From NCBI GenBank assembly GCA_000004985.1, contig GG738874.1: a DNA stretch of 64,000 bases. One strand, 5' to 3'. This DNA comes from Naegleria gruberi. Lineage: Eukaryota. Under the pieces are notes generated by a model. It had not been told where the DNA came from and did no database searches. It saw only the letters and a program-made list of their open reading frames with translations. The translations under genes were made by a program, and so were the position numbers. The first letter of the stretch is position 1. The number at the start of each line of letters is the position of its first letter. This document shows, piece by piece, positions 19,264 to 49,107 of this stretch.

Positions 19264-21153
19264 TTAAACAATTTCAACAGTTCCCATGTTGAATCCACAG
19301 TCCCCATTTCTTCCTCCTTGCGTACCAACAGATACAATGACGAAATCTAATCTAATTTTGGTTCCATTCAAAGTTCCCTTATAAGTGGCAACTCTACCAT
19401 CTTCCCACTTTGCAGTGACATCCATGAAATTGTTCAAGAAGGTTCCAGAGTATGTCTTGGCATATGATTGTCCAGCATTCTTATTCTTTCCTGAAACATT
19501 ACCAAATTCTACAAAATTCAATATAAATTTCTTAGAGCTAAAACTTACTATCAACATTGAAAGTCATCTTCCAACCATCTACTTCAGAATTCTATAAACC
19601 TTATTAGTTTTGAATAATCCTTAAAAAACTTACACATGATGAGCCATTCCATTTAGTCCAAAATGTTTTACCACTGATATTGAAAGACTTGGTTTCTGAT
19701 GGACTGCTACTAGTTTCAAATAATGTTCCAGTATTAAATCCACAATCTCCAACATGACCACCTTGAGTACCAACAGCAGTAATGGTAAAATCAAGTCTGA
19801 CCTTATTTCCAGTGACAGTTCCTTTATATGTGGCTGTTCTACCATCATCCCATCTAGCAGTAACATCCATGATATTATTTCTAAAAGTTCCACTATAATG
19901 CTTTCTGATGGAATTTTTACTATCATTCTTATTACTTCCAGAAACATTTCCGTTTGCTTAATATGTGTAAGTCCGAATAAAGATGAAAATAACCTACCAT
20001 CAACTTCAAATACCATTTCCCAACCCTCTACAGCAGAATTACAACCTAAAAGATGTAAATTAGAAATATAAATCTTAATACTTACCAGCCCCATTCCAAC
20101 GAGTCCAATTTGTAATTCCGTCCTTTCCACCTCCAATTCTGTAAAACTTATTCTTTTGTTGAATTGGTTGTACCATAGGTTGAACCATTGGTTGAACTAC
20201 AGGTTGTACTATTGGTTGTTGTTGATATACAGGTGGTTGTTGATACATTGGTTGTTGCATTTGGGGTTGCATTTGTTGTTGATATGGTGGTTGTTGACCA
20301 TATGGAGGTTGCATTGGATAAGAAGGTGCAGTAGGTTGTCCAAAAGGTTGATAAGGATTAAAGTTTTGTTGAGGAACAGTTGGTTGTTGTGGAAACATTG
20401 GTTGATTGGTAGTTGGATAAATTGGTTGATACATTGGTGGCTGTTGTTGCATTGGTTGTTGTTGTCCAGTTCTTCTAAAACAATCACCATTAGGCAATTG
20501 CCATGTATTAATATCCATAGTTTCAACCTTAAGAATTTGTTCACTTCCTTGATTTTGGAAAACCAAATACAATACAAATACATTTCTATTGTTATCACGA
20601 ACAGTGTAGGTATCACAAATTCTTCCATCGGTTTGATTTTTCAAAACAAAATGTCCTCCTTCATGCATAGTACATTTCCAAACCTTTAATTTATACAAAA
20701 TGTATAAAACAACAATTATTTCAAATACCTACCTTTCCAGAATTTTCGGTAAAATCAGCTCCGATCAAAGGAGGAACATCTTGAATAACAGTTGAAGCTG
20801 GTTGAGACAATCCAGTTGAATAATTCATAGAATGAATTCTAGTAAAGGTCTCATTAGTTGCTACTAATTGTGACCCATCAACTGAAGGAACAAACTTCAT
20901 ATTGGCATGTCCATCAAATCTTTGTAAATTAATATATAAATTTTAAAATTGTCATCAAACTATGAAACACCTACGTTGCAAATAAGACCCATTGTAATCC
21001 CCCGTTCAATGGCACAGCTATACCAGTAGCATTTCTATTAGTACCATCTTGAACCCATTGGAAGGTATTACCGAATTGTGTGGCTCTCCAAATTCTTCCT
21101 GATCTTTCAATCCACTCACCATCTAGTCTTGGTGCAACATTACCCATTTTCAA
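19264..21153 (-). CDS. Multi-exon protein with repeated beta-rich (lectin-like) modules and a Pro/Gln-rich linker (at least 6 exons)
   Basis: The gene starts 'MGNVAPRLDGEWIERSGRIW...'. Exons are joined by GTAGGT/GTAAGT donors. The ~50-aa module '...MDVTA(R/K)W(D/E)DGR(T/V)ATYKGT..G.K(V/I)RLDF.I..VGTQGG..GDCGFN(T/M)GT' is repeated, as is 'W.(K/R)WNG(A/S)'. Exon 20075..20698 encodes a P/Q/M/Y-rich linker 'QQQPPMYQPIYPTTNQPMFPQQ...VQPMVQPMVQPIQQ'. Confidence 0.45.
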
Positions 21154-38867: not shown

Positions 38868-40611
38868 TTAGAGATTGGATTGAAGTTGGAGGATAACAGT
38901 CTTGAGGGAAGTCCATGCCTTCATTCCCTCTTCTCCTGCTTCTCTACCAAAACCAGATTGTTTAACACCACCAAATTCGGCAACATGCAAAACATTGTGA
39001 TAATTATTGATCCAACAAACTCCACATTTGATTCTGTCAGAGAAGGTGAACATATTGTCAACATTCTTAGTGAGAATGGCAGCTGCCAAACCAAATTCAG
39101 TATTATTACATCTGGTGATAACTTCATCGAGAGTCTTCCATGGCTTCAGAATAGATTGAACTGGACCAAAGATTTCTTCTCTAGCAATACGCATATTATC
39201 ATCAACCTTATTTAAATTGAACAGAGAAAAACAAGTTAAATTATTGTGTGTTAGAATTGAGATAATTGTCAAAATAAACTTACATCATAGAAAATTGTTG
39301 GCTTGACGAAATAACCCTTAGTAGGTAAACCTTCAGAATCACCACCAATTAATAATTTAGCACCTTCCTTTTTACCAATTTCAATATAGCTCTTAACTCT
39401 GTCATATTGTTCCTTGTCAACCAATGGTCCAATATTAGTTTCATCATTCAAATTGTATCCAATCTTGAAAGTGGCGACATGTTCCTTGAGCTTTCTAACA
39501 AATTCATCATAGATATCAGCATGAACAAATGTTCTACTTCCAGCAGTACAAGCTTCACCATTATTATTGAAAATACTGAAAGCAGCAACCTTAACAGCTT
39601 CATCAACATTGACATCAGGACAAACAACAACAGGTGATTTACCACCGAGTTCCAAATGGACTTGTTTCAAATTAGATTCGGCAGCTCCCTTCATGACAAG
39701 ACGACCAACTTCAGTAGATCCTGTGAATGCAATCTTACTGACCTTCTTGTGACTGACGAGTGGAGCACCAGCATTTGGACCATCACCCATAACAACATTG
39801 TAAACACCCTTTGGAATACCAACCTTTTGACAAATGTCAGCAAGTTTGAGTGCAGTCAATGGAGTTTGTTCAGATGGCTTCAAAATGACACAGTTACCCA
39901 TAGCCATAGCAGGAGCAACATTAACCAATGAACACCACATTGGGAAGTTCCATGGAGAAATAACTAGACAAACGACTCAATTATTAAATTCTAATAATGC
40001 TACCTACCACCAACAACACCAACTGGGCTTCTTTGAGTATAAACGTGGAATTTCTTATCAGTAACACAAATTCTTCCACTCAATTTATCAATCCATCCAG
40101 CACTATATCTCCAAGTATCGGTAATACTCTACATTTCCACAAAATAATAATTAATTTTAAATTGTCATATATCCACAAAAACATTCCACAAAATAATTAA
40201 TTGAAATTAATTATATCAATACTACTCCGCATCACATCATCAACCTACTTTAATAACATAACGGTTAACTCCGATAGGTGTACCATTATTAAGTCCTTCC
40301 AACAAGGCCATTTCCTCAACTTGTCTATCCCATTCATCAGCAAGTTTATAAATAAGTTCTTGTCTCTTTTGTGGTTCCATATTTCCCCATTCTCCATTCA
40401 ATGCTTCTTCAGCAGCTTGAACAGCCAATTCAACATCTTGTGCACAACCATCACTAACACTACACAAAACTTGTTCCGTAGCTGGACAAATCAAGTCCAA
40501 CTTTTTTCCGCTCTTACTCTCCACAAATTCACCATTGATGAATTGTTTGAGTTGGGAAGGTTTGATGGCTTCAAATTGCTTCAAAACTTGTACGTGGGAA
40601 ATGTTGCTCAT
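38868..40611 (-). CDS. Aldehyde dehydrogenase (ALDH1/2-like), about 5 exons
   Basis: The N-terminus is 'LKQFINGEFVESKSGKKLDLICPATEQVLCSVSDGCAQDVELAVQAAEEA'. The core is 'ELGGKSP' and 'FNNNGEACTAGSRTFVH' (catalytic Cys), with 'EEIFGPVQSI' at the C-terminus. ORFs 40240..40611, 39269..39940 and 38868..39272 are linked by short GT-AG introns. Confidence 0.8.
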
Positions 40612-41478
40612 TTTTTTTCAATTCAATTTAAAAATATTTTTGGATTTTTATTTTTTTATGAATATTTTAGGTTTTACGATTTAAGATAGCATTATGTATA
40701 AAACAAAAACAATACACTTTAAATTATTAATAGAAAATTTTAAGATTTTTATGAGGGAATTTTTATACAATATGTACTTCTACTTCCTTAGTTGCCTTAA
40801 TTGGTTCGAATCTATACAGGTGTATAATGGAAGTGAAGGCGCTGAAGCACGCAACGAAATGAATGAAGGAGTTAGCTGAAGAGATTTTCTCTAATGAAAA
40901 GGGAAAATCTGTTGTGTCGTAAACGATAATACGAGAAGAAGCAGCGTGCTTATTGATTTGGATATTTATAAGAAATTTCCATTTTCCAATAGGCATGATC
41001 AAATTTTAAAAACCTTTAACTCTAAAACATTTCAGAAACAGATCGTGTGAGGGGTTATTACTTAGGAATTAAATTTTAGAAAGGAAGTTGGGAATAAAAT
41101 CAGAATACAACCCTATCTCTGTAACTCTAGCGGGTTGGTCCTCTTGAGCCAGAATGAACTTTGATTCTACTAATTCTGAATGTGATACCACTACTATTGC
41201 TGATCACAAAGACAAATTCATTGGGGTTTCCATTTTCAAACAGAATTCAACCTATTTAGAAATGGTGGAGCCAAGTCGGTCCTATCGCTTCTTGTTTACC
41301 TAGAATAGAATGATCTTTATATTAAGGGAAAACGCATTCGATTATCTCTCTTTAATCTCTTTTGTTTTGGCTCCGCTTCGCTGTTGCGAATGAATCAAAA
41401 TTCGGGTTAAAAGCTTGATTTTCATTCTCTGCATACTTTTCACAAATAAAACAAAACAACTCAACAATAAGCAGTAAG

Positions 41479-41808
41479 ATGCAAAGCGTTTTTAAGGTTC
41501 AATCACAAAACTTGATGGCGGTTCAACAAATTCAAGTCTACCTCTGTACACTCATAATCTACTTGCTTAATTCAATGTATAGGTCCCTGGTGTTCGATTT
41601 GGAGGAGTTCTTCATCGTTCATCACTACTCGACATCATTGGAGATTGGCAATATTATGAACACTGAAGAGAAGCAACAATTGAGAAGATTGTCCCTTATT
41701 GATGAGCAGGGATTTATGGATGAGTTATTGTTGAGTTGCTCCGAGGATGAGCAATTTAATTGTTGTCAATGCCTCTGTGGTGCTAACAAATCACAACAAC
41801 TCTCCTAA
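41479..41808 (+). CDS. Hypothetical small protein (109 aa)
   Basis: Isolated ORF in an otherwise non-coding 1 kb stretch; the C-terminus is Cys-rich ('FNCCQCLCGANKSQQLS'). Weak support. Confidence 0.2.
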   Translation: MQSVFKVQSQNLMAVQQIQVYLCTLIIYLLNSMYRSLVFDLEEFFIVHHYSTSLEIGNIMNTEEKQQLRRLSLIDEQGFMDELLLSCSEDEQFNCCQCLCGANKSQQLS

Positions 41809-41973
41809 GAGCAAAATGTCTTGTTTTGGTAGGGATATGGCTCTTCCAAAAGCAAAATCAAAAACACCAATTTAACCAACAGTCGAGAACGAAGAATGAA
41901 TTGTATTTCACAATAGAGTACAGGCCGAGAAATGGCATGTCGATGAAAACAATCTATTCGATGAATAAATTAT

Positions 41974-44229
41974 TTACTTGAATACTTTTACAATTTGAGT
42001 TATTGGTTTTCTACAGGTAGGACATGATTTGTTAGTGAGCTTGTTGGCACAGCCATCACACATTATCATGTGACCACATGGAACCAAAACTACATTAATC
42101 TCCTTATCCATACAAACGATGCAGTGATTATTTTCTTCTTGCTGCTCGTGGTGATGATCAGTAGGTGTGGTGATTTGAGAAATATTGGCTGGTTCTGGAA
42201 TTCTTTCTTCCTCTGCAAGCCAATCTCTATTAGTAAAGATGGATGGGTCCTCTGTTTGGATTCTTGAATTGGATGGAGTTATTCCACTATTAGAAGAAGA
42301 GGATTGATTGTTGTTGTTTGATTGACCTGTGTGTTTTTTTCTAGTTTGTACAATTTCTCTCTTTCTCTCACCGGCAAGGAATGCAGTTCTGTTTGACTTT
42401 TTCATTCTGTAGAGAAGTGAAGAGAGTTTGTCTGTTTCTCTCATTGATGAATCATTTTCACATTGTCTCAAATCTTCATCTAGGTCTTGAGTATTGTTTA
42501 CAAATGCATTCATTTCTTCTTGCTGACCGTATGACTTGGAGACTTCTTCCAAGAGTTTGTTCATACTCAAAAGTTTCAATCTGGCATCTCTAATTTTGCC
42601 ACTTTCAGCAAGAATGGAGCTTTGTAAAACTGCATTTAAGGACAATACAGAAACATCTACATTTTCTAAGGAAACACTTCTGTCAGATGTAATCTTAACT
42701 GGTTGATTAACCACTCTCACATATTTGCATCCGTTTGATGAGGCAGTATAGTAAATTTGTGCTTGAATCAATCCCTTATCCTTCTTATCATCTTTTACTT
42801 CCATTTCAATGGTAACATCTGTCTCAGCTGTTGCACTGCTAATTGATTGAGTAACCATTGAATACTTATCCAATTTAGATACCTCCTGATTCTTTGGTGA
42901 TATTGGATTGGAGAAGAGCATTTGTACTTTAACATCGGTTGCAATAACTGGATTATCAATAATTTGTCTCATTTGCCTTCTTAATTCAACTGGTTTTACA
43001 ATGTTTGTCAAACCTCCAGTATTATCAGCGAGCTTTCCAATTAATGACAAGTTACAGTTTGAGCCCTCAACACCAAAAACATTAATATTAATGCCATACT
43101 CGCAGGATAAGTTTGCAATCTTTGTGCAACACTCTTCTTGATCCTTGATACTTTTAGCTCTCTTTGAAATTTCCTCACTAATACCAGCCAAACCTGTTGT
43201 TGCAACTCCGTCAGTGCACAGGATAATTTTGCTACCTTTTTGCTGACTTGCAATACCCAAACTAACAAGTAAGGCAGGGAACAGTGCTGTAGCACCATCT
43301 TCTGCAATTGAGTAAATATACTCAATCAAATTATCATTGGCAAGTGAAACATTGTTTAGAATAGAGGTTCTATAAGATTGTCCTAACTTGAACAATCCTT
43401 CGAAATTATCAAGTAACACAGCTGGGACACTAGCTCTAGTTTGTGATCTGGCGTCACCAATAATTTGCACATTGCTTGAGAAGGTAACAATGGCTATTCT
43501 CTTATTGGGAGATTCTCTAGCTGTTTCAGTAACTTGAATATCTAGAGCCATCTTGAGACAGTCCATTCTAGAAACATAGGATGAAGATCGACTTTCGTTT
43601 GGAAGAAATTGATTATGAACAGAAACTTCAGATTCTAATCCCAATTCTCTCAGTAAACGTCTATTCTTTTCTTGTTGGTCGGATTGTCTCAAATCCAAAT
43701 TAAGAACAGAGTAGCTTGGTAATTGCTCAGATTGACACATACTGCCAGAGATATCAATACAAAAAACTAGTAAGCCGTCATCATCATTTACAGAACTCTC
43801 TTCCAACTTGTGTTCAATCATTTCTGGAATGGATGAAACATTGGAAGGTAATACATTTTCAGTATCGCAAAATGAGCATTTCCAATGATTTCTCTTTTTT
43901 TCACCATTTAACGCAGCTTTACAATTTGAACAGGTAACAAGAGGGCCTAGAGCTTTTGGACATTCTGCTAAAAGGCCATTCATACACAAGGCAGCAACAT
44001 TGGCATCAGATTTTGGATGTTTGATAGTTTGTTCGTTTGAAAGATCAATAGAGGATGAACAAGCTTGTGAAACTGTTGAGGCAGTCTTTTTTTCACTCTT
44101 CTTGAAAAGTCTCGATAAGAAACCTCCTCCACTAGACTTTTTTTTGCTTGTGGAAGATGATACTGAGCTACTTTGGGCATCATCGAGAGGAACATTTGAA
44201 ACAACTATTTGTTTTCTATAAGAATCCTC
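41974..44229 (-). CDS. vWA-domain RING-type E3 ubiquitin ligase (zinc-ribbon N-terminus, vWA/MIDAS domain, C-terminal C3HC4 RING); the frame is open upstream through a relic Ras switch I/beta2 segment to an acceptor at 44229
   Basis: The zinc ribbon is 'CSNCKAALNGEKKRNHWKCSFCDTEN'. The vWA MIDAS motif is 'LLVFCIDISGSM'. The RING is 'CIVCMDKEINVVLVPCGHMIMCDGCANKLTNKSCPTCRKPI'. The first ATG is at 43983, but the frame has no stop back to 44229, where it starts 'EDSYRKQIVVSNVP...'. Confidence 0.65.
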   Translation of the reverse strand, partial: EDSYRKQIVVSNVPLDDAQSSSVSSSTSKKKSSGGGFLSRLFKKSEKKTASTVSQACSSSIDLSNEQTIKHPKSDANVAALCMNGLLAECPKALGPLVTCSNCKAALNGEKKRNHWKCSFCDTENVLPSNVSSIPEMIEHKLEESSVNDDDGLLVFCIDISGSMCQSEQLPSYSVLNLDLRQSDQQEKNRRLLRELGLESEVSVHNQFLPNESRSSSYVSRMDCLKMALDIQVTETARESPNKRIAIVTFSSNVQIIGDARSQTRASVPAVLLDNFEGLFKLGQSYRTSILNNVSLANDNLIEYIYSIAEDGATALFPALLVSLGIASQQKGSKIILCTDGVATTGLAGISEEISKRAKSIKDQEECCTKIANLSCEYGININVFGVEGSNCNLSLIGKLADNTGGLTNIVKPVELRRQMRQIIDNPVIATDVKVQMLFSNPISPKNQEVSKLDKYSMVTQSISSATAETDVTIEMEVKDDKKDKGLIQAQIYYTASSNGCKYVRVVNQPVKITSDRSVSLENVDVSVLSLNAVLQSSILAESGKIRDARLKLLSMNKLLEEVSKSYGQQEEMNAFVNNTQDLDEDLRQCENDSSMRETDKLSSLLYRMKKSNRTAFLAGERKREIVQTRKKHTGQSNNNNQSSSSNSGITPSNSRIQTEDPSIFTNRDWLAEEERIPEPANISQITTPTDHHHEQQEENNHCIVCMDKEINVVLVPCGHMIMCDGCANKLTNKSCPTCRKPITQIVKVFK

Positions 44230-44318
44230 CTAATAACATTTGTTTGAAACATGATATTCAAAGAAATTCACTTACACTATAATAATAACATTCAGTAATA
44301 TTCAAAGAAGCAACTTAC

Positions 44319-45111
44319 ATTGTTGGGTCGTATTGTTCTACGAACACATTTTGAATGAATTGTGTGCAATAAGCACTTTTTCCTACACCACCAGAGCCAA
44401 CAATAGAAAATCTGTATTCATCCAATCTTCCACACATTCTTACTAGTTCATGAATAGGTTCGTCTACATTAATCCTTTGTTTGGCACTTGTTTCAAAATA
44501 AGGAATGCCCAAACGAAGTGCAACTTCCTTAACTTGTTGTTTTGACACTATTCTCTCCTCTTCCAAATCACTCTTGTTTGCAATAAGTACACAAGGAAAT
44601 GAATCAACATCCTTTGTCCTCAAAATTTGTTCCCAAATAGTTTGACAATCTTCCAACGAACTTGAATCTGTTATCGAAAAAACAATAAGAAAACCATATG
44701 ATGTTCTATAGTATTGATCTCTCAAACTACTATATTCTATTGTTGAGTGAGTGCAAAGAGGTTAGCACACTTGTTAATAATGAGAGACAACAAAAACCAA
44801 CCTTCTTGTCCAGCAGTATCGAGTAAATCAATTAAAGCTACATGATCGGAGCCTCCAGTAGTATTACTTTCACCACCAACAGAAGAATATCCAAGCTGTT
44901 TTCTTCTAGAATGTGTGTATGCCTTCTTTAATGAGTGAGACTCTTCCAATAATCGGAGAGGAAAGAAATCATATTCTTCATCCTCTTGTTGGTCAGTCTT
45001 CTTCTTGTTGTGATACAATGTTTTGGTAGCCAATTGTAGAGACATTTTCTTTAAACTTTTTAATAAATTAAAATAATGATGATTAACATAAACATGATGG
45101 TTGTTGTACAA
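44319..45111 (-). CDS. Ras-family small GTPase with a permuted motif order (G3-G4-G5 followed by G1-switch I); exons ..44802 and 44736..44319
   Basis: Exon 1 (the ATG at 45045 or 45111 is ambiguous) reads 'MSLQLATKTLYHNKKK..EEYDFFPLRLLEESHSLKKAYTHSRRKQ...ALIDLLDTAGQE' and has no P-loop. A phase-1 donor lies at 44801 and an acceptor at 44737. Exon 2 reads 'EYSSLRDQYYRTSYGFLIVF...LIANKSDL...FETSAKQRINVDEPIHELVRMC' and then 'GRLDEYRFSIVGSGGVGKSAYCTQFIQNVFVEQYDPT', ending at a GTAAGT donor at 44318. Confidence 0.7.
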
Positions 45112-45353
45112 TATCTAACAACGGGTAAAACTGAGAACTATGGTTCCATCATGTTCTAATGTAACTCTGAACAATATTTTGAAAAGTCACTATGATGAGA
45201 AGAGATATTTTATTTTTTAAAATTCTTAAAATAATTTTTAATAATTTTTAAAAAGCAAAATAATTTGTGTGAATAGGCAGAAATGAAACTACCGTTACAA
45301 ACAATACCATCTATTATTATCAACTAACTGAAAAAATATTCCTCACATCAAGA

Positions 45354-46335
45354 ATGCTAACACGAAGCAAGAGAAACAATCTGCAAAACAAGAGGAGACT
45401 CTACTCTGAAGCCATTAAATATTACTCTTCATCCGAAGAATCAGAAGAGGACGATGAAACAGAAAGTGAACAAGAAGATAACCAACCAAATAATGGTGAA
45501 AATGCTCAAGGAGATGATGAATATAATTATTCTTCACCCGAAGAAGAATTCGCATCAGATATTTCCAATGATGATGAAACACCAAATATCAAACACAACA
45601 AAAAGAAGAGAAAACGCAATTCATCACCGGAAGAGGAATCCAGGAATACTTTTGAATCACCAATTATTATTGATGATCAATCCTCTCCTATTGATTTATT
45701 AACACCTCCCACCACAACAACAAATTCAAAATCAAATTCTTCACATCATTTAGGTGATGAAACAATAATTCTCTCCGATTCATCTGAAGTTTCAGTCATT
45801 ATTGATATATCAGATTTTTCTAACAACAATAGTTCGTGCTCATTGAATCAATGTGCAGATGATCATCAACATGGTAATTCACCATCACCACCACTGAATT
45901 ATCCTCCTTCACCACCACATTTTCAAGAGATGATGGCGCAACCAACTTTAAACGAAAAGTTTGCATCATCACCATCAGCAACATGTTTGGAAAATAAAGC
46001 AGCTGAAGGTAGTGAAGATCATGAACCCCCATTGTTGGAGCCAATTGAAGAGTTTCAAGTGAATACTGAACCAGAAAGTCAATTAGAAGATGATAACATT
46101 TCTTTGGACTTTAATATCCTCAAATTGGCAGGTCAAAAGTCTTGTCACTAGCGAACTAAAACAAATTTTAGATCTGGATCCATTGGATAATGGTGAAGAA
46201 TCGAATAATGAAGAAAATGTTGGGAAGTTACTGGCTCATTTTGGGGAAACAGATAGAGAATTTCTTGCACAATATGCTAAACTAGATGACTCTAAGAAAC
46301 AGAAACTCTTAGAATATATTGCAACCCTGCAATAG
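45354..46335 (+). CDS. Acidic low-complexity nuclear protein with SIM-like hydrophobic/acidic clusters; exons 45354..46131 and 46172..46335
   Basis: A 40-nt GT-AG intron (donor 46132, acceptor 46171) joins ORF 45354..46151 to ORF 46090..46335 in frame ('..ILKLAG|DLDPLDNGEE'). The protein has S/E/D-rich stretches and 'IILSDSSEVSVIIDISD'. Confidence 0.4.
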
Positions 46336-46918
46336 CTTAATGATTTAGTGGAGATTGTTATCCTTCAGCTGAATTATCATTTATTGAGAGAATATACCAA
46401 CTCATAATTATTATTATCAAGATTATACTTGAATAGTGTTCAAATAAATTCATTGATGATCTATGAGATTAATGAGTGTGAAATCTTTGAATCACCTTAA
46501 CAAGTGTTGACTATTATGAAAATAGGATGCAAAACTATTGATTTTCACAGTATTTATCAAGATATAATAATTCAATCATTCATCCATATTTAAATATTAA
46601 CAAGTAAAATAAATTAGCACCACCTGCTCAGGCACTATTTAGAAACTTTATAAATTATTGCATTTCTCATTAAATACTGCAATACAATGTGATGAGGGAA
46701 TCTTCAATAGTGCATTTTCAAATAAAATTCAATTCTTCCTGTTATAGTGGATGGGATATCAGTTTTGGATCCACAGGTTTCAACTTTGAAACACTGTTCA
46801 AAATCAAATAGTGATTTCCATTTAAAAATTTGTCAAGTCAAAAAACCGTTACACATCACGTGTCAATTGAGTAAATTGTTCACTATCAATAAACTGTTTC
46901 ATCAAAACAATTAAAAAA

Positions 46919-47780
46919 ATGGGTAAGAAGGATTCGAAAGTGAAAGTAGGTTGATGTAGTAGAAAATGTCAAACTAATCTTTAATTATTCGAATTGTGTA
47001 CTAGGTAGTTGCCGTAGGAGATGGTGCTGTCGGCAAAACATGTTTATTGATGGTTTATGTAGGTGTTATTGTTTTGCACTTTCTTCAATGATTTTATTCG
47101 ATTCTTGTGGAAACTTGTCCGAATACGCCATTTCTATGATGTTGTATTTTAATGTTCGGAATATCACACTTCATCTGTATCATCATAATTTTCCTATTTT
47201 ACCAATAATATTTCATCAAAATTTTGTTTCGAATAACATAGGTAAATAATGAATTTCCAGAAGAATACATTCCAACAGTTTTTGAAAATTACGATACAAA
47301 TGTCAAACACAAGGGAAATAACATAACATTATCTGTTTGGGATACTGTACGTAATATTGTAACAACAACATTATACGAAACATCACATTGATCTATATAT
47401 TCTAAACATTATGAACTATTTAGGCTGGTCAAGAAGATTACGATGAATTGAGACATTTATCATTCACATTTTGTAATTGTTTCCTAGTTTGTTTTGCAGT
47501 TACCAACAAGACCTCATTCAACAATATCAGTACCAAGTGGATACCTGAAATTAAGAATTTTTCAGCAAAAACTCCATTCATTCTCGTTGGAACTAAGGGA
47601 GATATGAGAGGAAAGAATTCAGATGCTGATGTTGTGAGTTATGCGGAGGCTGAAAAGCTAGCTAAGGATATTGGAGCTGTTTGTTATATTGAATCATCTG
47701 CTCGTACAAGAAAGGGTGTTGATGAGGTGTTCCAAAAGGCTATTGATATTAATGTAAAGAAGGGATGCGAAATTATGTAA
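46919..47780 (+). CDS. Rho/Rac-family small GTPase with a C-terminal CAAX box; exons 46919..46945, 47005..47058, 47242..47346 and 47424..47780
   Basis: 'MGKKDSKVK|VVAVGDGAVGKTCLLMVY|VNNEFPEEYIPTVFENYDTNVKHKGNNITLSVWDT|AGQEDYDELRHLSFT...ILVGTKGDMR...ESSARTRKGVDEVF...KKGCEIM*'. All introns are GTAGGT/GTACGT to AG. The G1, G3 and G4 motifs are present and the CAAX box is 'CEIM'. Confidence 0.8.
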
Positions 47781-47824
47781 AATAGAAAATGGATTAAAAA
47801 ATATATGTTTGAATTTAAAAAAGG

Positions 47825-47898
47825 TTACAGCGAGCGGGGCTTGAACCCGCGACCTTAAGCGTGTTAGGCTTACGATCTAACCAACTGATCTATCGCTG
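47825..47898 (-). tRNA. tRNA-Val (anticodon AAC)
   Basis: On the minus strand: 5'-GCAGCGA TA GATC AGTTGGTTA GATC G TAAGC CTAACAC GCTTA AGGTC GCGGG TTCAAGC CCCGC TCGCTGT A-3'. It forms a clean cloverleaf with a 7-bp acceptor stem (one G-U pair), a T-loop TTCAAGC, and AAC as the anticodon at positions 34-36. Confidence 0.85.
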
Positions 47899-48019
47899 CT
47901 TACACTCTTATCATCTAAAATTTTAATACTATTCGTATCCCAATTCCTAAATTAACCAAAAACTGGAAATAGATAAGACCCATAAAACCAAATAAATCCA
48001 GAGCTTATCAAAGAAAAAA

Positions 48020-48922
48020 ATGCTCGATTTCCCAACTGACTCTGAGGACAGAACTTCAACCTACGATGAAAACCTCTCCAAGGCAACTTACTATGCAATG
48101 AAACCAACTCATTCACTCACAAATCAATCGGGAGTAAGGAAAACTCGATTTTCCTTTCGAAAACCCAATTCTCATACCCAACCGGAGGTTGTTGTGAATG
48201 GGGAAATACAACATTCTCATCATTATCAACAATCGAATCAATCGAATCTAAATTATTCGAATTACAACCATCCTTTCGGCGATCAACCAGCAATTCCATA
48301 CGAATCCTCAATGGCTGTTCTTCAGAATACTTCAGATCATCACAATCAACCTCCTATTTATTCAGATAAACCAAGTTTTCGGCTATCAGAAAGTGATGAG
48401 CAACGAAAACTCCAACAAGTTATTCGAAGAAGTTTCGTCCTCGCCATTTTGAGTTGGTTGTTCTGTGGTGGATGTTTCTACAGTTGTCTATGTTTCCTCC
48501 CTCTATATAGAAAGAATTACATCTTTTACAATGTGGAAAATTCATTTCTCGATGATACTTCCAGTGGCTACGGTCTTCGAAAGAATAACAAATCAGTTTC
48601 CAATAATGCAATGTACTATTCGAATCAAGATGAAGAAATCCAACAACAAGCAACAGCCAACGAAGACCAAATCATTGACCAAAACAATAGACAGACCAAT
48701 AATGGTGAATGGAAATATGTCATGAAAAGTTTCAAGGGAAATCGTTTCAGAGATTCTCCCTACAGAAGTATTAAGCATCGAGCTGAGAGTGCTTTTGATT
48801 GTGGATTTTGTGGATGTTTGGCGTTGAATTGTTTGTTGATGTTTTGGGTGGTGGCTTTGGGGAGTAGTGCCCTGATTATTGTCCTGTTGAAATTCTTCTA
48901 TTCTGGTTATAATAAAATGTAA
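48020..48922 (+). CDS. Hypothetical membrane protein (300 aa) with Cys-rich TM segments
   Basis: Single ORF. The hydrophobic segments are 'SFVLAILSWLFCGGCFYSCLCFLPLY' and the C-terminal 'CGFCGCLALNCLLMFWVVALGSSALIIVLL'. The N-terminal half is Q/N/S-rich. Confidence 0.35.
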   Translation: MLDFPTDSEDRTSTYDENLSKATYYAMKPTHSLTNQSGVRKTRFSFRKPNSHTQPEVVVNGEIQHSHHYQQSNQSNLNYSNYNHPFGDQPAIPYESSMAVLQNTSDHHNQPPIYSDKPSFRLSESDEQRKLQQVIRRSFVLAILSWLFCGGCFYSCLCFLPLYRKNYIFYNVENSFLDDTSSGYGLRKNNKSVSNNAMYYSNQDEEIQQQATANEDQIIDQNNRQTNNGEWKYVMKSFKGNRFRDSPYRSIKHRAESAFDCGFCGCLALNCLLMFWVVALGSSALIIVLLKFFYSGYNKM

Positions 48923-49107
48923 AAAGTTGTGTGTGTGAGTTGAATTTCGAATATTGATGAAAATATGAAATTCGAAAGTGTATTGTAAAGTAGGATTCCT
49001 GTTAGAAAGGCAAGGAATTTGATCAATTTCTATTGGATATTGGACATTAAGAAGGAATACGGAGTTAATGATAACCTCCGTGAGCTTTTAGTTTTTTTTA
49101 TCCTAAA

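Follow-up and report, generated by a model that had tools for sequence, protein, structure and literature searches.

Naegleria gruberi CPRas, a circularly permuted Ras protein with a vWA-RING extension, and a candidate one-nucleotide exon in its gene

Background

The cpRAS domain is a circularly permuted Ras domain defined by the motif order G3-G4-G5-G1-G2, and it was described, along with a cpRAS-VWA architecture type, in a paper that also printed the sequence of Naegleria CPRas, pointed out its additional C-terminal RING, conceded that the architecture gives 'little clues' and put forward GTP binding and hydrolysis by cpRAS as a prediction (Elias & Novotny 2008, Biol Direct 3:21). The published N. 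gruberi protein (NgrCPRas) had itself been 'corrected' by its fit to the alignment. The supplement says just that gene models were corrected, and the main text, in which exon/intron structure is undiscussed, is free of the words 'intron', 'duplication' and 'tandem' (Elias & Novotny 2008). Our literature search found no paper on the functional characterisation of any CPRas.

The YRG/YlqF/RsgA proteins are likewise circularly permuted P-loop GTPases with a normal fold, but the two groups are unrelated: YRG proteins are ribosome-assembly GTPases found in all domains of life; cpRAS, by contrast, is an offshoot of the Ras family confined to eukaryotes. The permutations differ too, YRG having the order G4-G5-G1-G2-G3 (a cut between beta3 and alpha2) and cpRAS the order G3-G4-G5-G1-G2 (a cut between beta2 and beta3). 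A further precedent concerns splicing, i.e., the experimentally verified 1-nt exon of Arabidopsis APC11 (Guo & Liu 2015, Sci Rep 5:18087), which lies between two canonical introns, was missed by annotation and is needed for the reading frame. Within a limited search of the literature, experimentally verified single-nucleotide exons were found in plants only.

Results and discussion

Identity of the locus

The window analysed here is a stretch of 64,000 nucleotides of N. gruberi (GenBank assembly GCA_000004985.1, contig GG738874.1). We are highly confident that its minus strand carries, at 45045..41974, the N. gruberi CPRas gene as one gene with a product of 972 aa (ca. 108 kDa, estimated from this length). 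The spliced window protein is identical to published NgrCPRas at 972/972 positions (Elias & Novotny 2008, Biol Direct 3:21). The likeness is total in motif order, Ras-family 'TIE' G2, architecture and the C-terminal RING of the Naegleria form, with no differences at the protein level. The earlier note on this DNA knew of no described cpRas or Ras-vWA-RING architecture, a statement overtaken by that paper, which contains the exact protein, the cpRAS-VWA type and the Naegleria RING. The Ras-vWA-RING gene is real but has been known since 2008, and as its architecture was published for this very gene, its rediscovery adds no new biology. An exact look-up of the 669-aa ORF in its 3' part gave no record, and a near-identical protein (P0001) led to an independent contig; a homologue search with the cpRAS half returned mostly canonical and tandem Ras proteins, and no transcript-derived N. 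gruberi protein.

The predicted order of the product is N-terminal region, cpRAS, linker, 4-Cys zinc finger, vWA/Sec23-24-like trunk with an intact MIDAS, beta-sandwich, helical domain and RING. It thus shows the elements of the cpRAS-VWA type (short poorly conserved N-terminus, cpRAS, linker, 4-Cys zinc finger, VWA/Sec23-24 trunk) together with the additional C-terminal RING of the Naegleria form.

The permuted G domain

All five G motifs are encoded in the first two exons of the minus strand. Exon 1 (44802..45045) extends from M1 through the first base of codon 82 and holds the N-terminal region, beta3 and G3 (DTAGQE, residues 76-81, 44820-44803); its start, M1 at 45045, agrees with those annotated for the N. 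lovaniensis and Willaertia orthologues, and the N-terminal region (MSLQLAT..., ...SRRKQL) is conserved within the lineage. Removal of the 65-nt phase 1 intron 1 (44737..44801, GTTGGT...(GCTAAC)...AATAG) yields DTAGQE-EYSSLRDQY, which is contiguous in the orthologues. Exon 2 (44319..44736) contributes alpha2 to alpha5 with G4 (NKSD, residues 135-138, 44578-44567) and G5 (ETSAK, residues 163-167, 44494-44480), and then runs directly into beta1 and the P-loop (G1, GSGGVGKS, residues 195-202, 44398-44375), alpha1 and switch I with G2 (YDPT, Thr codon 44323-44321), ending at DPT plus the 'AT' of codon 221. The passage from the last Ras helix into a second Ras N-terminus within one exon and the C-terminal placement of the P-loop, both claimed in the earlier note, are therefore borne out, and a search of the minus strand from 45046 to 49000 found no P-loop upstream.

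Comparison with other proteins agrees with this motif order, and upholds the reading as a circularly permuted Ras G domain. Aligned with a canonical Ras (P0140), the window protein gave two BLASTP HSPs in permuted order: its residues 67-185 pair with Ras 54-172 (56% identity, E 1e-45) and its residues 188-259 with Ras 9-85 (E 3e-14), the second being Ras-like over about its first 45 residues only (to roughly Ras 53) before the linker begins. The Pfam Ras model matched two stretches (E 3e-46), and the best PDB sequence matches of the domain were R-Ras2, HRas and KRas. With strand1-helix1-strand2 directly after helix5, the domain belongs to cpRAS, and the equivalents of G12/G13, Q61 and T35 are present. 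Its Ras-family 'TIE' G2 (YDPTIE, residues 217-222) is present if the T at 44276 completes codon 221, and the published sequence reads TIE. The YRG order is not found, as G3 precedes G4, and the Pfam RsgA_GTPase model, which spans G4-G5-G1, scores 23.5 bits and stays below its cut-off of 30. Canonical Ras, Rap and R-Ras proteins share the five motifs and 50-56% identity per segment; CPRas differs from them in segment order, in being without a C-terminal CAAX or hypervariable tail and in carrying the domain within a multidomain protein of 972 aa.

The structural view comes from an AF2 model of the Willaertia orthologue, which is 47% identical to the window protein (pLDDT 79, pTM 0.77; pLDDT >90 over residues 81-200). 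Its elements follow one another as beta3 (56-64) ... alpha5 (163-172), beta1 (177-184), alpha1 (190-199) and beta2 (213-220), with the new termini at the beta2/beta3 hairpin, and Foldseek superposes it on Rap1B (rmsd 0.8 over 109 columns). The N-terminal segment would thus provide beta3 to alpha5, and the chain would lead straight into beta1, P-loop, alpha1, switch I and beta2. That the C-terminal beta1/P-loop/alpha1 completes the G fold, as had been supposed, is consistent with the normal Ras fold modelled for this orthologue.

Origin of the permutation

Homologues go under the name 'circularly permutated Ras protein 1-like', and proteins combining Ras with VWA (and in some cases RING) are present in Willaertia, N. 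lovaniensis, Acanthamoeba and Dictyostelium. CPRas is 43-48% identical to its orthologues in Willaertia and N. lovaniensis and 25-31% identical to metazoan 'circularly permutated Ras protein 1-like' proteins; Willaertia P0003 likewise carries a RING, and in N. lovaniensis one lies downstream of the truncated gene model. Orthologues of Heterolobosea (Willaertia and other Naegleria), Amoebozoa and Metazoa share the G3-G4-G5-G1-G2 order and the flanks that accompany it, so the permutation predates all three. Judged from these alignments, the permutation is an ancient trait of the whole family and not one made at the N. gruberi locus; the family itself may be as old as the last eukaryotic common ancestor.

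Circular permutation is classically explained by duplication with subsequent deletion, and the earlier note took the domain to be the apparent product of a tandem duplication with terminal deletions. Beta2-like strings at both ends of the domain (SRRKQL at the N-terminal, SYRKQI at the C-terminal end) speak for such an event at this locus, and the resemblance of the Willaertia N-terminus MSIQFATSHFL to Ras alpha1 (score 35, reached by 2/2000 shuffles in one of five tests run) is suggestive. However, the phyletic distribution of the same order and flanks contradicts it, the supposed 'alpha1/switch I relic' of the window protein is not statistically supported by the same test (local alignment score 20, reached by 1028/2000 shuffles), and the similarity is likewise not significant in N. 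lovaniensis, Acanthamoeba and Balamuthia. The SRRKQL segment is helical, not beta2, in the Willaertia model, and in P0041 and P0063 the corresponding N-terminal motif stands ahead of Ras domains that are complete and non-permuted. We therefore consider a recent local origin extremely improbable; for a permutation this ancient, the route can only be inferred.

The Sec23/Sec24-like module and a proposed function

Exon 3 (41974..44229, stop TAA at 41976-41974) encodes the remainder of the protein on the minus strand. It opens with beta2 (EDSYRKQIVV, 44229-44200) and a Ser/Lys-rich linker with GFLSRLF (44124-44104), and continues through the 4-Cys zinc finger (C321-x2-C-x14-C-x2-C342, 43932-43867), the vWA/Sec23-24 trunk (about 43779-42973; MIDAS DISGS, D380-x-S-x-S, 43755-43741), the beta-sandwich (42936-42691), a helical region and the RING, a C3HC4_3 finger with a complete C3HC4 ligand pattern (42132-41995; Pfam zf-C3HC4_3, E 2.8e-16).

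The order zinc finger, trunk (vWA fold), beta-sandwich and helical domain is that of Sec23/Sec24, and Foldseek aligns the orthologue model with whole Sec23/Sec24 chains (E 2e-22, about 630 columns). Identity is 10-14% only, the Pfam scores fall short of their cut-offs (Sec23_trunk 20.8 bits vs 27; Sec23_BS 22.6 vs 33.5), and Pfam reported no helical-domain or gelsolin match on CPRas. The likeness is a resemblance of fold and not family membership. CPRas also differs in keeping the MIDAS (DxSxS...T...D) in its vWA, in having a GTPase fused in cis and in the appended RING.

Sec23 is a partner and GAP of the small GTPase Sar1. We infer that CPRas is a putative GTP-switched adaptor/E3 ligase, in which the Ras-like GTP/GDP switch would gate the Sec23/24-like ligand-binding module and, in Heterolobosea, the appended RING would recruit an E2 and ubiquitinate whatever this module binds. 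As a second type of circularly permuted GTPase, joined to a RING as well as to a Sec23/24-like vWA module, CPRas is a genuine oddity, and what seems worth following up is the function of a family of such possible age, together with the exon 2/3 junction.

Probably one gene rather than two

The unspliced exon 2 ORF terminates at ...EQYDPTM followed by TAA (44317-44315, within a GTAAGT), and prokaryote-style ORF callers on the metagenome contig give exactly two products, of 133 aa and 669 aa. Both observations would fit a truncated Ras (pseudo)gene that ends at this TAA beside an unrelated vWA-RING E3 gene starting at ATG 43983. Against this, the 246 nt preceding ATG 43983 contain no stop in the vWA frame and encode EDSYRKQIVV and the conserved GFLSRLF and KSDAN, and the strain differences within them are synonymous. 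In the comparison of the window with an independent contig (L001/L002), the linker shows 2 synonymous and 0 non-synonymous differences, and the 669-codon ORF (L001) shows 7 and 1. The linker motifs GF[FL]S.[LF]F and K.DAN, upstream of the same ATG, are conserved in the orthologues, whose annotated products span cpRAS and vWA: in Willaertia a protein of 969 aa, with one 43-nt intron, from cpRAS through RING, and in N. lovaniensis one of 799 aa from cpRAS through vWA. The junction between cpRAS and linker is intronless in both species, with 'YDPTIEDSYRKQ' and the start of the linker in a single uninterrupted reading frame. Two separate genes are thus highly improbable, and the suggestion that the Ras part belongs to the vWA-RING gene, in a frame open without a stop from EDSYRKQIVV into the zinc finger/vWA/RING ORF, held up.

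The exon 2/3 junction

The junction itself had been read as an 89-nt intron that keeps the frame, which is off by one base: joining the AT that ends at 44319 to the GAG at 44229 gives ...DPTMRILIENK and a stop. An in-frame join requires the removal of 88 nt, and the published reading DPTIEDSY requires two tandem mini-introns of 42 and 46 nt around a single base. In the arrangement we propose, mini-intron 2a (44277..44318, minus strand, GTAAGT...TTATAG), whose donor contains the TAA of the unspliced ORF, is followed by a single-nucleotide exon (T, 44276..44276) and mini-intron 2b (44230..44275, GTAAGT...TTATTAG). The one-base exon is proposed from frame arithmetic, the invariance of DPTIEDSYRK and identity to the published protein. 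Joined to the preceding 'AT', T 44276 makes codon 221 ATT, i.e., the family-invariant Ile of DPTIEDSY, DPTIEDSYRK being invariant across all aligned homologues that carry the segment. The two mini-introns are homologous to each other (alignment score 42.5, reached by 0/1000 shuffles), and the same double-intron structure, plus a 3-nt insertion, is present in the independent metagenome contig (L001/L002). Intron candidates in the window measure 40-77 nt, those of 53-77 nt being confirmed by junction-spanning Pfam hits, and mini-intron 2b is close in size to the shortest of them and to the single 43-nt intron of Willaertia.

Splicing of 44318..44230 as one 89-nt intron, with canonical ends (GTAAGT...TAG), would leave N. 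gruberi with a disabled or shortened gene, frameshifted at DPTMRILIENK into a cpRAS-only protein. We think this quite unlikely: the 2.2-kb ORF downstream has stayed intact and shows purifying selection between the two strains (7:1 synonymous to non-synonymous; linker 2:0), the in-frame EDSYR codons are perfectly kept despite the divergence of the two intron copies, intron definition would pair each GTAAGT with its nearest downstream acceptor, and 89 nt exceeds every intron candidate in the window. Other in-frame junctions, unlikely as well, are conceivable in two forms. A 103-nt GT..AG intron with its end at TATAG (44216) has canonical sites and keeps the frame, giving DPTI-KQIVV, but it would skip two good upstream acceptors and drop EDSYR, invariant in the aligned homologues carrying the segment. 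An 88-nt intron (GT..TA or TA..AG) is arithmetically possible and gives DPTMEDSY, but it needs non-canonical splice sites and turns the invariant Ile into Met.

Two further candidates were set aside. A sequencing error behind the 1-nt offset was rejected since the junction recurs in an independent assembly that carries SNPs, and alternative donors inside exon 2 (after NVF) were rejected because the conserved VEQYDPT with its G2 threonine would be lost. The string YAGNGTAAGT occurs once in the window, at the exon 2/3 site, where 0.64 occurrences are expected; the count is not unusual window-wide and so proves nothing alone. A metagenome scan for closer relatives with the double intron gave one distant match, to the RING region only.

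Expression of full-length CPRas most likely requires that both mini-introns (42 and 46 nt) around the single base be removed, as the reading frame suggests. On balance we lean towards a CPRas mRNA with a constitutive 1-nt exon (T, 44276), born from the tandem duplication of a short intron, both copies of which are removed to keep the frame, possibly one after the other; its junction would then read ...CCAACAAT-T-GAGGATTCT. Compared with Arabidopsis APC11, the CPRas exon is inferred, its flanking introns are a tandem duplicate pair and the gene is that of a heterolobosean. If the reading is true, it would account for the wrong automatic models of the CPRas gene, and this candidate exon could, within our limited literature search, be the first case outside plants.

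A circularly permuted Ras gene

The window is AT-rich eukaryotic DNA with short spliceosomal introns (GC 34%, in agreement with the 33% reported for N. gruberi). Exon 1 of the CPRas gene (45045-44802, minus strand, ATG at 45045) encodes ...HVALIDLLDTAGQE (G3) at its 3' end and is followed by a 65-nt intron (44801-44737, minus; GTTGGT...GCTAAC...TAG) and by exon 2 (44736-44319, minus), which carries EYSSLRDQ..., LIANKSDL (G4), ETSAK (G5), GRLDEYRFSIVGSGGVGKS (G1) and EQYDPT with the G2 threonine, G1 directly continuing the last Ras helix (HELVRMC) in an unbroken reading. Downstream, EDSYRKQIVV (44229-44200, minus) shares one open frame with a Ser/Lys-rich linker and a 669-codon ORF that encodes a 4-Cys zinc finger, a DxSxS-containing vWA/Sec23-24 trunk, a beta-sandwich and a RING of the C3HC4_3 type. 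A search for a P-loop further upstream on the minus strand (45046-49000) found none, and the neighbouring upstream ORF (45354-46151) lies on the opposite strand. A Rho/Rac-like small GTPase gene with several short exons occupies ca. 47017-47780 (plus; P-loop VAVGDGAVGKTCLL at 47017, G4/G5 part at 47448-47780); this gene is distinct from CPRas and has no bearing on the CPRas P-loop.

The permuted order is confirmed by three comparisons. In BLASTP against a canonical Ras (P0140), residues 67-185 align to Ras 54-172 (56% identity, E 1e-45) and residues 188-259 to Ras 9-85 (E 3e-14; here the Ras-like part ends after roughly 45 residues, the remainder entering the linker), i.e., the two segments stand in swapped order. 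The Pfam Ras match is split into two stretches (E 3e-46), and the top PDB sequence matches, canonical R-Ras2, HRas and KRas, cover only residues ~67-187, with no cpRAS structure among the best 60. Together with the open downstream frame, these results show that the core of the earlier observation is real.

A homologue search with the downstream part retrieved proteins named "circularly permutated Ras protein 1-like" at NCBI (molluscs, nemerteans, echinoderms, and fishes) and Ras+VWA proteins of Acanthamoeba, Balamuthia, and Dictyostelium purpureum, the closest homologues being those of Willaertia magna (969 aa; Ras+VWA+RING; 43% identity) and Naegleria lovaniensis (48% identity). All keep the order ...DTAGQE...NKxD...SAK...GxGGVGKS...YDPTIEDSYRK. 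The earlier note's view that neither a cpRas nor a Ras-vWA-RING architecture had been described is wrong: Elias & Novotny 2008 (Biol Direct 3:21) described the family, named the cpRAS domain (G3-G4-G5-G1-G2), defined a protein type with the architecture cpRAS-linker-zinc finger-VWA, represented in Dictyostelium, Acanthamoeba, Naegleria gruberi, Capsaspora, Monosiga, and a few metazoans, and pointed out the additional RING of the Naegleria protein. As our spliced model matches their N. gruberi protein at 972/972 residues, the window locus is, by sequence, the gene published in 2008 and already known. The earlier note was right on architecture and largely confirmed as an observation, and wrong on novelty, local origin and intron arithmetic.

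One gene rather than two

A truncated Ras pseudogene adjoining an unrelated E3 gene, with translation of the latter beginning at ATG 43983, is very unlikely. A single unbroken reading frame runs from 'YDPTIEDSYRKQ' into the linker in both N. lovaniensis (L003) and Willaertia (L004), the sole nearby intron sitting in alpha1, and the annotated products span both parts (Willaertia, 969 aa, cpRAS to RING; N. lovaniensis, 799 aa, cpRAS to vWA). The stretch 5' of ATG 43983 bears the family-conserved motifs GF[FL]S.[LF]F and K.DAN. Against an independent metagenome contig (L001/L002, ERR1078381; strain 99.2% identical), the linker shows two synonymous and no non-synonymous differences, and the 669-codon ORF seven and one, respectively. 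Given these frames, products, motifs and mostly synonymous changes, the linker must be coding and spliced to the Ras exons, and the Ras and vWA-RING parts belong to one gene, as had been suspected.

L001 (ENA ERZ929261 / ERR1078381, PRJEB11402; 4801 nt) is 99.2% identical to window 39920-44717, so that public metagenome sample holds a near-identical N. gruberi-like strain. The N. lovaniensis gene model (P0004, 799 aa; NCBI) ends short of the RING and looks truncated, since a RING ORF (CVVCMDREINVVLIPCGH...VRVFK*) follows ~300 nt downstream in a different frame (L003 8602-9060, PYSW02000034.1).

A candidate single-nucleotide exon

The 89-nt intron proposed earlier (44318-44230, minus; GTAAGT...TAG) does not join exons 2 and 3 in frame: its removal yields ...DPTMRILIENK*. 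A sequencing error is ruled out as the source of this offset, as L001/L002 carry identical bases at both boundaries; within the interval, a 3-nt insertion and one substitution are their sole differences from the window. The interval (44230-44318, minus) reads as a tandem pair of candidate mini-introns, each starting GTAAGT and ending TAG, of 42 nt (44318-44277; GTAAGTTGCTTCTTTGAATAT...TTATAG) and 46 nt (44275-44230; GTAAGTGAATTTCTTTGAATAT...TTATTAG), with a single T (44276) between them. The halves are mutually homologous (alignment score 42.5, reached by 0/1000 shuffles), and L001/L002 has the same arrangement. Removing both gives AT+T+GAG, in which ATT encodes Ile, and restores DPTIEDSYRKQ, which is invariant in the family and stands in the published protein. 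Because the frame is kept only if both are removed, the interval is a candidate single-nucleotide exon or sequential-splicing site. Other excisions are possible but worse: a single 89-nt removal truncates the protein, a 103-nt GT..AG intron would lose the invariant EDSYR, and with a non-canonical intron (GT..TA or TA..AG) the invariant Ile would become Met. We consider the one-base-exon model for T 44276 slightly favoured. Elias & Novotny 2008 (Biol Direct 3:21) corrected their N. gruberi gene model by alignment fit and did not discuss introns in the main text. In Arabidopsis, APC11 is an established case of a constitutive single-nucleotide exon; that of CPRas is inferred, a modest, testable curiosity.

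Introns of 42 and 46 nt are plausible in this genome, given window candidates of 40, 44, 48, 52, 53, 56, 62, and 77 nt, the one 43-nt intron annotated in the Willaertia orthologue (gene 2953 nt, product 969 aa) and the 30-bp minimum intron length set in the N. fowleri genome study. In a Pfam scan of the 44-, 52-, 53-, 56-, 62-, and 77-nt candidates, one domain match bridges each of the 53-, 56-, 62-, and 77-nt introns; the 44- and 52-nt introns of a P-type ATPase lie outside Pfam matches, with motif continuity as sole support. A further example of tiny introns and exons, its boundaries read by eye, lies at 19480-19640 (minus), where two introns (~49 and ~40 nt), each beginning GTAAGTTTT, apparently flank a ~43-nt exon. 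Genes recognised during this validation were a BTB/BACK protein (~1-1000, plus), a G-alpha subunit (around 15646, plus), an adenylate/guanylate cyclase domain protein (around 36647, plus), an aldehyde dehydrogenase (~39100-40611, minus), and the P-type ATPase (~53-57 kb, minus).

Predicted fold and origin

The Willaertia orthologue, modelled with AlphaFold2 as a stand-in for the window protein (pLDDT 79, pTM 0.77; residues 81-200 pLDDT >90), runs from beta3 (residues 56-64) through alpha2, beta4, alpha3, beta5, alpha4, and beta6 to alpha5 (163-172), and then to beta1 (177-184), alpha1 (190-199) and beta2 (SYRKQVRV, 213-220); from this order, the C-terminal segment is predicted to complete the G fold. 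By Foldseek, the beta3-alpha5 block matches Rap1B (rmsd 0.8 over 109 columns, 51% identity) and the rest of the model matches entire Sec23 and Sec24 chains (~630 columns, E down to 2e-22). CPRas has equivalents of Ras G12/G13, T35, and Q61, and the vWA MIDAS residues D380, S382, S384, T535, and D561 are near-invariant across the family. Our literature search found no functional study of CPRas. Tentatively, a Ras-like nucleotide switch, with chain termini at the interswitch hairpin, might control a Sec23/24-like, metal-dependent ligand-binding module, and in Heterolobosea the RING might then ubiquitinate whatever the module binds.

The permutation could reasonably have arisen by duplication and later deletion, but not at this locus, where the earlier note placed these events, for homologues across lineages share the permuted order; CPRas is among the proteins that a 2026 paper names as potentially present in LECA. 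In the window protein, the supposed N-terminal alpha1/switch I relic lacks statistical significance (score reached by 1028/2000 shuffles); in the Willaertia model the N-terminal SRRKQL string lies within helix 35-50 and forms no strand, and in two VWA relatives (P0041, JGI metagenome; P0063, EukProt m51a1_g14012) the matching N-terminal motif precedes complete, non-permuted Ras domains. In both, this domain (G1-G5) is preceded by M[DE]FGS.FF.V, the N-terminal motif of the family, and followed by G[FL][FL]S.[IL]F, that of the linker, and the two proteins may represent a pre-permutation state or a reversion. A permuted form, P0065, probably comes from the same dataset as P0063, as they have the m51a1 identifier prefix in common.
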